Positions 5,585-7,047 of a DNA stretch of 64,000 nt are shown here, one piece after another. This DNA is from Escherichia coli (GTDB lineage Bacteria > Pseudomonadota > Gammaproteobacteria > Enterobacterales > Enterobacteriaceae). Below the pieces are notes generated by a model. The model did no database searches and had not been told where the DNA came from. It saw nothing but the letters and a program-made list of their open reading frames with translations. The position numbers and the translations under genes are program-made. Location: assembly GCF_009931435.1 (NCBI RefSeq), contig NZ_CP043414.1; one strand, given 5' to 3'. The number at the start of each line of letters is the position of its first letter. The first letter of the stretch is position 1.

Positions 5585-5846
5585 GAAATCCGTCTGGTTG
5601 CTGTTAGCAAAGACACGAGTATATAAGCGAAAGCAAGATGGGTAAACGTCTGAACTGTAAGTGATCGTCAGGGCTAATCTGAAAAGTCCCCGTAAATCAA
5701 TCGGCTAAATTGCCATGTTTTATCATCAATCTTGCCGCCTGATCTTAATCTGAAAAATCATCCAATACAGACAGATACCCATTACACCTCGGGTCATAAC
5801 CCGCAGGATCAACCGCATGTAAATTAAAAAAGAGCGTGTTGTCCTG

Positions 5847-6920
5847 ATGAAACAAAAAGAGCTATGGATTAACCAGATCAAAGGGTTATGTATTTGTCTT
5901 GTAGTGATTTATCACTCGGTCATTACCTTTTATCCGCATCTGACCACTTTTCAGCATCCGTTATCGGAAGTCCTGAGCAAATGCTGGATCTATTTCAATC
6001 TTTACCTTGCCCCCTTTCGTATGCCGGTTTTTTTCTTTATTTCTGGCTATTTGATTCGCCGCTATATCGATAGCGTGCCATGGGGAAATTGTCTCGATAA
6101 ACGCATCTGGAGCATCTTCTGGGTGCTGGCACTTTGGGGCGTAGTGCAGTGGCTGGCGATAAGTGCACTAAATCAGTGGCTGGCACCTGAGCGCAATTTA
6201 AGTAATGCCTCCAATGCCGCTTATGCCGATTCTACCGATGAGTTCCTGCACGGAATGATCACCGCCAGCACCAGCTTGTGGTATCTGTATGCTTTAATTG
6301 TCTATTTCGTGATATGTAAAATTTTTAACCGCCTGGCCCTGCCGTTATTTGTTCTGTTTGTACTGATGAGTGTGGCGGTTAATTTCGTACCCACACCGTG
6401 GTGGGGAATGAACAGTGTGATCCGCAATTTGCCTTATTACAGCCTTGGCGCATGGTTTGGCGCAACATTAATGACCTGTGTTAAAGAGGTGCCGTTGCGC
6501 CGCCATCTGCTGATGGCTTCTTTGCTGGCTGTTCTGGCGGTCGGTGCCTGGTTGTTTACTATCTCGCTGCTGTTGTCGCTGGTATCGATTGTGGTGATCA
6601 TGAAACTGTTTTATCAGTACGAGCAACGTTTCGGTATGCGCCCCACCAGCCTGCTGAATGTGATTGGCTCCAACACCATTGCTATCTACACCACCCATCG
6701 CATACTGGTAGAAATATTCAGCTTAAGCCTGATTCCGCAAATGAACGCGGCACGCTGGTCGCCGCAAGTCGAACTGACGCTCCTGCTGGTTTACCCCTTT
6801 GTCAGTTTGTTGATTTGTACTGTTGCGGGCTTGCTGGTAAGAAAACTTTCACAGCGCGCATTCAGCGATCTGTTGTTCTCCCCGCCTTCTCTGCCCGCTG
6901 CCGTCAGTTACTCCCGCTAA
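5847..6920 (+). CDS. ycfT: Inner-membrane acyltransferase-3 family protein YcfT
   Basis: 357-aa very hydrophobic multi-TM ORF at the position expected between lolC and mfd. Confidence 0.85.
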   Translation: MKQKELWINQIKGLCICLVVIYHSVITFYPHLTTFQHPLSEVLSKCWIYFNLYLAPFRMPVFFFISGYLIRRYIDSVPWGNCLDKRIWSIFWVLALWGVVQWLAISALNQWLAPERNLSNASNAAYADSTDEFLHGMITASTSLWYLYALIVYFVICKIFNRLALPLFVLFVLMSVAVNFVPTPWWGMNSVIRNLPYYSLGAWFGATLMTCVKEVPLRRHLLMASLLAVLAVGAWLFTISLLLSLVSIVVIMKLFYQYEQRFGMRPTSLLNVIGSNTIAIYTTHRILVEIFSLSLIPQMNAARWSPQVELTLLLVYPFVSLLICTVAGLLVRKLSQRAFSDLLFSPPSLPAAVSYSR

Positions 6921-7047
6921 GCCATCGCCCCAGCCGGGGCGATTCAATTTGCTAAACCATGTCGATTACGGATAATGAACAGCATTGCTTATCAGAGATA
7001 TGCCCCCATATGTTGAGGCATATCCTAACGAGAATCTGACAACCGTT

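Follow-up and report, generated by a model that had tools for sequence, protein, structure and literature searches.

The gene ycfT, which with its flanking spacers occupies positions 5585-6984 of a 64,000-nucleotide stretch of Escherichia coli DNA (RefSeq assembly GCF_009931435.1, contig NZ_CP043414.1; the whole stretch is called the window below), lies between the lipoprotein-sorting genes lolCDE and mfd. Its product is probably a stand-alone inner-membrane O-acyltransferase of the acyltransferase-3 (AT3) or transmembrane acyltransferase (TmAT) family, which would act on an extracytoplasmic glycan and be switched on together with the Rcs response. The gene is already known and annotated, it belongs to a known family, and the locus holds no surprise for a specialist. 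What can be added to this picture, namely a variant of the family motif, a small clade, a loss in Salmonella, distant relatives placed in polysaccharide loci and an expression linked to Rcs, amounts to modest refinements. Stand-alone AT3 proteins are nevertheless the least understood class of transmembrane acyltransferases, and ycfT is an E. coli gene that still has no assigned function. Knowledge of its acceptor would yield one further envelope-stress effector in the Rcs response, as well as a tractable E. coli model of acyl transfer completed by an AT3 protein without an SGNH partner.

Family, fold and motif residues

The region contains a single long open reading frame (ORF) in the ORF listing, starting with ATG and encoding 357 amino acids; the rest consists of the two spacers. 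A preliminary description of this DNA, made from the letters alone, had named the gene ycfT and had placed it between lolCDE and mfd, and the RefSeq annotation of near-identical DNA leads to the same identification. Of 5426 complete E. coli genomes, 5425 contain the 1400-base stretch, 5418 of them with a coverage of at least 80%, and every E. coli match listed carries the annotation "ycfT: acyltransferase family protein".

YcfT matches the Pfam family PF01757 (Acyl_transf_3) with 98.3 bits against a cut-off of 31 (E=5.8e-28), in an alignment that spans residues 6-327 and positions 2-321 of the 326 in the profile. The assignment to the AT3 family had been staked on such a profile search, and the search did not fail. 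No second Pfam domain was detected in the protein. Because PF01757 is the sole domain, without the SGNH domain that marks the two-domain AT3-SGNH class (OafA, OafB, OatA), YcfT is a stand-alone AT3 protein. The best match in NCBIfam, the MdoC/OpgC equivalog NF003014, reaches 26.5 bits (E=3.4e-6) and stays far below its cut-off of 338, and the equivalog of the fucose acetyltransferase NolL (NF042426) scores 18.4 bits against a cut-off of 425. Since these equivalog scores are so far below threshold, and since the pairwise identity is 19% with E. coli OpgC and 22% with WecH, YcfT is not orthologous to any characterized AT3 member, these two included. Its sole match among the PHROG families is a weak one to PHROG 3333, "O-acetyltransferase" (E about 1e-5).

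No PDB chain has a sequence match to YcfT at E<=1. An AlphaFold2 model, made from an alignment of 93 diverged relatives, has a predicted local distance difference test score (pLDDT) of 93.7 and a predicted template modelling score (pTM) of 0.91. Its helices fit ten transmembrane segments in the ten-helix arrangement of the TmAT fold, with a periplasmic loop at about residues 113-144 and a disordered C-terminal tail. The protein had been described as polytopic and 357 residues long, and the ORF, the Pfam match and the model all agree with this.

In AT3 proteins an "absolutely conserved" R-X10-H motif is found in helix 1 and an RXXR motif on helix 3, at its cytoplasmic face, and a pore gives acyl-CoA access to the histidine at the periplasmic side (PMC9833829). 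In YcfT, His23 lies at the periplasmic end of helix 1, where the catalytic histidine is expected, and aligns with the histidine of OpgC and WecH; it is invariant in an alignment of YcfT with 92 diverged relatives, to which all counts below refer (93/93). Equally invariant are Arg58, Pro60, Gly67, Trp97 and Trp145. The FFxISG motif is present, with Phe62 in 92, Phe63 in 91, Ser66 in 89 and Gly67 in all of the 93 sequences, and so is the Tyr/His motif of helix 9 (Tyr281 90/93, His284 92/93). Three motif positions deviate from the family rule. The arginine of R-X10-H is not kept, and Lys12 takes its place (lysine in 82 and arginine in 11 sequences), while the aspartate that precedes it in DxxR is Asn9 in the enterobacterial orthologues (78 Asp and 14 Asn in the clade). 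The helix-1 motif of YcfT consequently reads Asn-x-x-Lys-X10-His where the family has Asp-x-x-Arg-X10-His. As to RXXR, the first arginine is retained as Arg86 (arginine in 78 and lysine in 11 of the 93 sequences); the second corresponds to Ser89, an equivalence that derives from the sequence alignment with OpgC; the clade has Asn 21, Ser 18, Thr 15 and Arg 6 times at this position. Arginine and lysine are both tolerated at the helix-1 site in AT3 and CAS1 proteins (PMC12423673), and we read the Lys12 variant as a conservative, clade-specific change that carries no apparent sign of inactivity.

On the basis of the family model (PMC9833829) and of the HGSNAT structures, we infer an acyl donor, a direction of transfer and a type of acceptor for YcfT. 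The ten helices would form a pore, into which acyl-CoA, most likely acetyl-CoA, would enter from the cytoplasm. The phosphates of the coenzyme would be held by Lys12, Arg58 and Arg86, so that the thioester could reach His23 on the periplasmic side, and a hydroxyl of an extracytoplasmic glycan would finally receive the acyl group. Envelope stress would switch on the gene, which is dispensable, along with the Rcs/colanic-acid response.

In several respects YcfT is reminiscent of two characterized E. coli enzymes. OpgC (MdoC), the AT3 protein that succinylates osmoregulated periplasmic glucans (OPG), belongs to the same Pfam family, has the same stand-alone ten-helix build and a similar size, and shares the helix-1 histidine, the Arg58-Met pair, FFxISG and Y-x-x-H; both genes lie away from any biosynthetic cluster. 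WecH (YiaH), which O-acetylates enterobacterial common antigen, is likewise a stand-alone protein encoded apart from its polysaccharide cluster (PMC9558356), and has the conserved histidine, Arg58, FFxISG and Y-x-x-H in common with YcfT. Both enzymes have the canonical helix-1 arginine of R-X10-H, which is a lysine in YcfT (K-X10-H), and in OpgC the RXXR motif is complete too, where YcfT has RXXS. Unlike WecH, moreover, YcfT is limited to part of its family of bacteria and has been lost in Salmonella. OafA, OafB and OatA have the AT3 pore with the helix-1 histidine and the proposed threading of acyl-CoA in common with YcfT (PMC9833829), but they carry an SGNH domain, and YcfT has neither such a domain nor an SGNH gene nearby. 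A likeness to the Oac proteins of the Sf6 type, which act in serotype conversion by phages, exists via a relative in Acinetobacter baumannii that is encoded beside an integrase and via the weak PHROG 3333 match; ycfT differs in being chromosomal and syntenic and not located on a mobile element. The solved acyltransferases of the TmAT fold, HGSNAT and GWT1, show 10-14% identity to YcfT; they are eukaryotic, have extra domains, and use the glucosamine of heparan sulfate (HGSNAT) or the inositol of glycosylphosphatidylinositol (GWT1) as acceptor.

Distribution, selection and the contexts of relatives

The comparison of genomic contexts that had been suggested for ycfT gives the order lolC-ycfT-mfd in about 13 genera of the Enterobacteriaceae and finds the distant relatives largely in polysaccharide loci. 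A HMMER search against 1.84 billion cluster representatives (clusters at 50% identity) yielded 536 clusters at E<=1e-3 and 39 at E<=1e-30, and beyond a single enterobacterial cluster the identity to YcfT falls to about 35%. Among the matches listed, orthologues with at least 56% identity and conserved synteny occur in Escherichia, Citrobacter, Enterobacter, Kosakonia, Lelliottia, Pseudescherichia, Pseudocitrobacter, Siccibacter, Mangrovibacter, Cedecea, Pluralibacter and Phytobacter, and those of Leclercia, Yokenella and others were seen as protein matches only. The names Klebsiella, Raoultella and Cronobacter are absent from the best 120 YcfT matches and from ten further clusters, although these genera were not looked up directly. 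YcfT appears to be confined to part of the Enterobacteriaceae. In 27 of 30 orthologue loci lolC lies directly upstream in divergent orientation, the remaining three being contig ends that stop short of the upstream region. Downstream, mfd is found in 28 of the 30, directly in all but two (L030 and L038), in which about 2-4 kb intervene.

The Salmonella locus was reached directly via the LdtC protein. In Salmonella enterica, which lacks ycfT, lolC is followed by mfd across a spacer of 337 bp (positions 6070-6406 of locus L095), in which a YcfT remnant is undetectable. Positions 5686-6940 of the window (about 1255 bp) are replaced there by 61 unrelated bases, whereby the gene has disappeared entirely, together with half of its upstream spacer and half of the hairpin behind it, while the first TTCTGAAAA box (box 1 in Table 1) and the mfd promoter are kept. 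Because of the phylogenetic position of Salmonella, this absence is a secondary loss.

Where the gene is present, it is maintained. All 28 orthologue ORFs that were compared, 27 of them extracted from genomes of other Enterobacteriaceae species, are intact, with 351-357 residues and with invariant motif regions, and no pseudogene was found among them. The ratio of nonsynonymous to synonymous substitution rates (dN/dS) of ycfT is 0.08-0.16 across nine comparison genomes, from E. coli to Cedecea, against 0.00-0.08 for lolC and mfd in the same genomes. The identity to Citrobacter is 76% for YcfT and 94% for both LolC and Mfd; to Cedecea it is 56-57% for YcfT, 86-87% for LolC and 89% for Mfd. Even within the species a difference is visible, since 1105 E. 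coli genomes have the ycfT stretch at 90-95% DNA identity, as opposed to 2 for an equally long part of mfd and none for lolCD. Judged by these ratios and identities, ycfT is under purifying selection, evolves much faster than its neighbours and is functional but weakly constrained. The Pfam score, the presence in nearly all E. coli genomes, the dN/dS values and the intact orthologues show that the ORF is no product of chance.

Outside the orthologous clade, the neighbourhoods of the relatives are informative. A relative in Chimaeribacter is flanked by a gene for a transporter of the DcuC family, downstream of asmA, and by a yegH-like gene, which separates it from a wza-wzb-wzc-wcaA-wcaB cluster. 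Another (L094) lies inside an exopolysaccharide cluster of the composition Wzx/GT2/Wzy/hexapeptide/GT4/GT2 ... Bac_transf/Wza/Wzc, a third (L093) is the final gene of an operon with Wzx, a TupA-type ATP-grasp protein and the AT3 protein, and a fourth (L091) is followed by a glycosyltransferase gene. A verrucomicrobial relative (L092) adjoins a GH84 N-acetylglucosaminidase, and that of Hahella has no informative neighbour. The closest relative outside the Enterobacteriaceae, with 35% identity, is found in A. baumannii within a prophage, with an integrase on one side and lysis and tail genes on the other, and it also matches PHROG 3333. The integrase side of a prophage is the classic position of a serotype-converting O-acetyltransferase, and the A. 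baumannii gene is likely a lysogenic-conversion gene that modifies capsule or lipooligosaccharide. In Pantoea and Erwinia (L002/L003, 6445-9083; L039 and L040, 6001-8303), YcfT-like AT3 genes occur as tandem pairs with 31-38% identity. Examined gene by gene, five of eight such contexts point to surface or secreted polysaccharides.

Two observations on these neighbourhoods may be added. The A. baumannii prophage (L007, 6583-17065) is P22-like and comprises the integrase, the AT3 gene, an endolysin, a holin, large tail genes and a gp7-like ejection protein. The Pantoea pairs lie just downstream of fliA-fliZ-dcyD-tcyJLN, which includes cystine transporter genes; this adjacency is curious given the induction of E. 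coli ycfT by cysteine, and may be a coincidence.

Expression and possible acceptors

The expression behaviour of ycfT is documented in published work. An inhibitor of LolCDE raised its transcript 9.3 and 16.5 fold, together with wcaA, gmd, osmB and ycfJ, and left lolCDE itself unchanged; among other antibiotics followed by quantitative PCR (qPCR), only polymyxin B had an effect on ycfT, and a modest one (PMC5105897). In an isolate of O157:H7 with a disrupted rcsB, ycfT was down 3.25 fold (PMC5343319). Supplementation with cysteine increased ycfT by log2 7.9, with the RcsAB (colanic acid) iModulon up and the RpoS iModulon down (PMC11408624). In a population evolved on sorbitol, at high osmolarity, an IS1 insertion in ycfT reached 65% (PMC7407084). 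The published transcriptomes show that ycfT rises and falls with the Rcs/colanic-acid response. The preliminary description had called the substrate unknown, and indeed no function is assigned in any paper found that mentions ycfT as a gene.

Within the proposal of a glycan O-acyltransferase, colanic acid is the leading candidate for the acceptor because of the co-induction and the Chimaeribacter context; it is an unproven candidate, which we name with considerable reserve, and other envelope glycans come next in line. It is somewhat easier to imagine, though still speculative, that YcfT represents a small and distinct AT3 subclade, characterized by D/N-x-x-K-X10-H, R-x-x-N/S and an invariant R-M-P, that adds a stress-conditional acyl decoration to an envelope glycan when Rcs fires. 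If this were true, the decoration, be it on colanic acid, on OPG or on another polymer, would have been overlooked, since such polymers are usually analysed from unstressed or mucoid laboratory strains.

Several points weigh against the proposed glycan O-acyltransferase under Rcs control. In none of the 30 Enterobacteriaceae loci does a polysaccharide gene adjoin ycfT. The cytoplasmic enzymes WcaB and WcaF are already credited with the two known acetyl groups of colanic acid; Salmonella produces this polymer yet lacks ycfT. No RcsB or RcsAB box with at most one mismatch to TNRGANNNNTCYNA was found in the window, nor does an alignment of 24 lolC-ycfT spacers show one at a constant position. Because a canonical box is missing upstream of the gene, the Rcs control may be indirect or may operate via a non-canonical site. 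Lipids, proteins or small molecules have recently been reported as the targets of some stand-alone AT3 proteins (PMC13345540). Finally, three motif positions that are called essential in AT3 proteins (Asn9, Lys12 and Ser89) appear altered. It could be imagined that YcfT is catalytically degenerate, a decaying or repurposed AT3 scaffold that serves, for example, as a channel or a regulator: aspartate and two arginines have given way to Asn9, Lys12 and Ser89, the protein changes several times faster than its neighbours (76% versus 94% identity between Escherichia and Citrobacter), the gene was lost in Salmonella and laboratory evolution selected an insertion in it. Such a degeneration is improbable, as His23, Arg58, FFxxSG, Tyr281 and His284 show little or no variation across the 93 sequences, dN/dS of about 0.1 indicates purifying selection, Lys12 is a rule of the clade (82/93) and not a recent lesion, AT3 and CAS1 proteins tolerate either arginine or lysine there (PMC12423673), and 28 of 28 orthologue ORFs are intact.

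The acceptor could also be different from colanic acid. YcfT might acylate OPG, as a second, stress-induced OPG acyltransferase beside the succinyltransferase OpgC. MdoC/OpgC is the best NCBIfam match, however far below threshold (26.5 bits, E=3.4e-6), both proteins have the stretch R-M-x-V-F-F-x-I-S-G-Y, the IS1 insertion in ycfT rose to 65% in the population evolved at high sorbitol (PMC7407084), and the title of a work cited in PMC9558356 describes regulation of Dickeya opgC by RcsCDB. The identity to OpgC is just 19%, though, and the 338-bit cut-off of the equivalog is widely missed; mdoC mutants were isolated for their lost OPG succinylation, so that OpgC alone explains the known acyl substituent; Salmonella has OPG and is devoid of ycfT; and no opgGH genes are present beside any of the distant relatives in the eight contexts. 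This makes OPG an unlikely acceptor. Less plausible still than either OPG or a degenerate enzyme would be a lipid, lipoprotein or small molecule tied to lipoprotein trafficking, which would explain both the pairing with lolCDE and the specific response to the LolCDE inhibitor. The divergent lolC/ycfT arrangement in all 27 orthologue loci whose contig extends upstream is in line with it, as are the qPCR results, in which the antibiotics that induced ycfT were the LolCDE inhibitor and, weakly, polymyxin B (PMC5105897), and the reported action of stand-alone AT3 proteins on lipids, proteins and small molecules (PMC13345540). Adjacency is weak evidence, since gene order in this family of bacteria is generally stable, and lolCDE is not co-induced (PMC5105897). 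Salmonella kept lolCDE and deleted ycfT, and in the eight contexts no relative outside the Enterobacteriaceae stands beside lol genes, several of them being in polysaccharide loci. LolCDE inhibition, a known trigger of Rcs, suffices to explain the specificity of the response. An enzyme that decorates an extracytoplasmic glycan under the influence of Rcs is therefore the interpretation that we prefer.

The locus and its spacers

The features of the locus are collected in Table 1. In the E. coli genome with the best match, the RefSeq annotation gives the neighbouring genes the same names. The lolC start, at 5584, diverges from ycfT, and the spacer between ycfT and mfd measures 127 bp.

Table 1. 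Genes and predicted control elements in the ycfT region (positions in the window)
Feature	Position	Strand	Basis or remark
cobB, Sir2 family	670-1491	-	Pfam
nagK, ROK kinase	1507-2418	-	Pfam
lolE, MacB_PCD/FtsX permease	2447-3691	-	Pfam
lolD, ABC ATPase	3691-4392	-	Pfam
lolC, MacB_PCD/FtsX permease	4385-5584	-	Pfam
lolC-ycfT divergent intergenic region, 262 bp	5585..5846	.	both promoters inside; sequence and 24-spacer alignment
lolC promoter-like TTTACC-17-TATACT	5618..5646	-	consensus scan; both hexamers in blocks conserved across genera
Box 1, TAATCTGAAAAGTC, upstream copy of TTCYGAAAA type	5675..5688	+	direct repeat; conserved across genera; function inferred only
Predicted CyuR site, GGCTAAATTGCCATGTTTTATCA	5703..5725	+	PMC11408624; sequence present in the window
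Box 2, TAATCTGAAAAATC, candidate ycfT activator site	5746..5759	+	direct repeat; about 100 bp upstream of ATG
Conserved block ACAGAC	5768-5773		24-spacer alignment
Candidate weak ycfT core promoter TTACAC-16-CAGGAT	5782..5809	+	suggested by conservation
ycfT, predicted stand-alone AT3/TmAT membrane acyltransferase	5847..6920	+	357 amino acids plus stop
Terminator-like hairpin AUCGCCCC-AGCC-GGGGCGAU	6924..6943	+	8-bp GC-rich stem, 4 nt past the ycfT stop, weak U tract
mfd sigma-70 promoter TTGCTA-16-GATAAT	6949..6976	+	consensus scan
mfd, TRCF	7048-10494	+	Pfam
ldtC, YkuD L,D-transpeptidase	10635-11600	+	Pfam

Boxes 1 and 2 are two copies of TAATCTGAAAA(G/A)TC, 71 bp apart. Within the ycfT-proximal part of the spacer no block is better conserved than box 2, which many genera have about 100 bp before the ATG; in Enterobacter it forms an inverted repeat, TTTTC-C-GAAAA. 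Neither box fits any of the regulator motifs scanned, and box 2 is not a canonical RcsB box. The consensus scan called no strong sigma-70 promoter for ycfT, the candidate core promoter included, but the hexamers of the latter are conserved as TTACA (5782-5786) and CAnnAT (5804-5809) in the 24 spacers, which represent many genera. TTACA/CAnnAT could be a weak core promoter, then, with transcription predicted to begin near 5816 and with box 2 as a candidate site for an activator. Scans of the spacer for CpxR and sigma-E motifs gave nothing convincing and nothing conserved in position, and the spacer has no match to an Rfam family in a scan of 5400-7200. CyuR was considered as the main control of ycfT and rejected: conservation of its predicted site ends with Escherichia, and deletion of cyuR does not change ycfT expression (PMC11408624).

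At the other end of the gene, the hairpin has a folding energy of -16.5 kcal/mol (z = -3.0), and none of 200 shuffled sequences is equally stable; a strict terminator scan missed it because the T run is short. The mfd promoter is included as a constitutive RpoD promoter in the list of PMC3946193. Because mfd has its own sigma-70 promoter, ycfT is monocistronic, and with lolC divergent and a hairpin after the stop codon it forms a separate transcription unit. This is in accordance with the earlier view of a gene that sits alone with its own promoter region.

Further observations concern the surroundings of the gene. A 12-nucleotide inverted repeat, TGTTGAGGCATA / TATGCCTGAACA (7011-7022 and 7047-7058), pairs the mfd leader with the region of the mfd start codon (-13.8 kcal/mol, z = -2.6), and might limit the translation of mfd. 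A weak match to Rfam RsmY on the minus strand at 6999-7139, overlapping the mfd start, has 19.9 bits against a gathering threshold of 57 (E=0.037) and is most likely due to chance. A tblastn match with 95.5% identity to ON470612.1, the partial genome of Escherichia phage vB_EcoS-640R1 (L090), raised the possibility of a phage-borne ycfT, which was rejected. The match is host DNA, because the record starts with about 10 kb of E. coli chromosome (1-10407), from ycfZ to mfd, with mfd, ycfT, lolCDE, nagK, cobB and ycfZ. Finally, positions 4185-8999 of the window are not close to any of the 5426 complete E. coli genomes: the best identities are 99.4% for lolCD, 99.0% for ycfT and 98.0% for mfd, with a different top strain for each segment, which suggests that the window originates from a divergent or mosaic Escherichia lineage.

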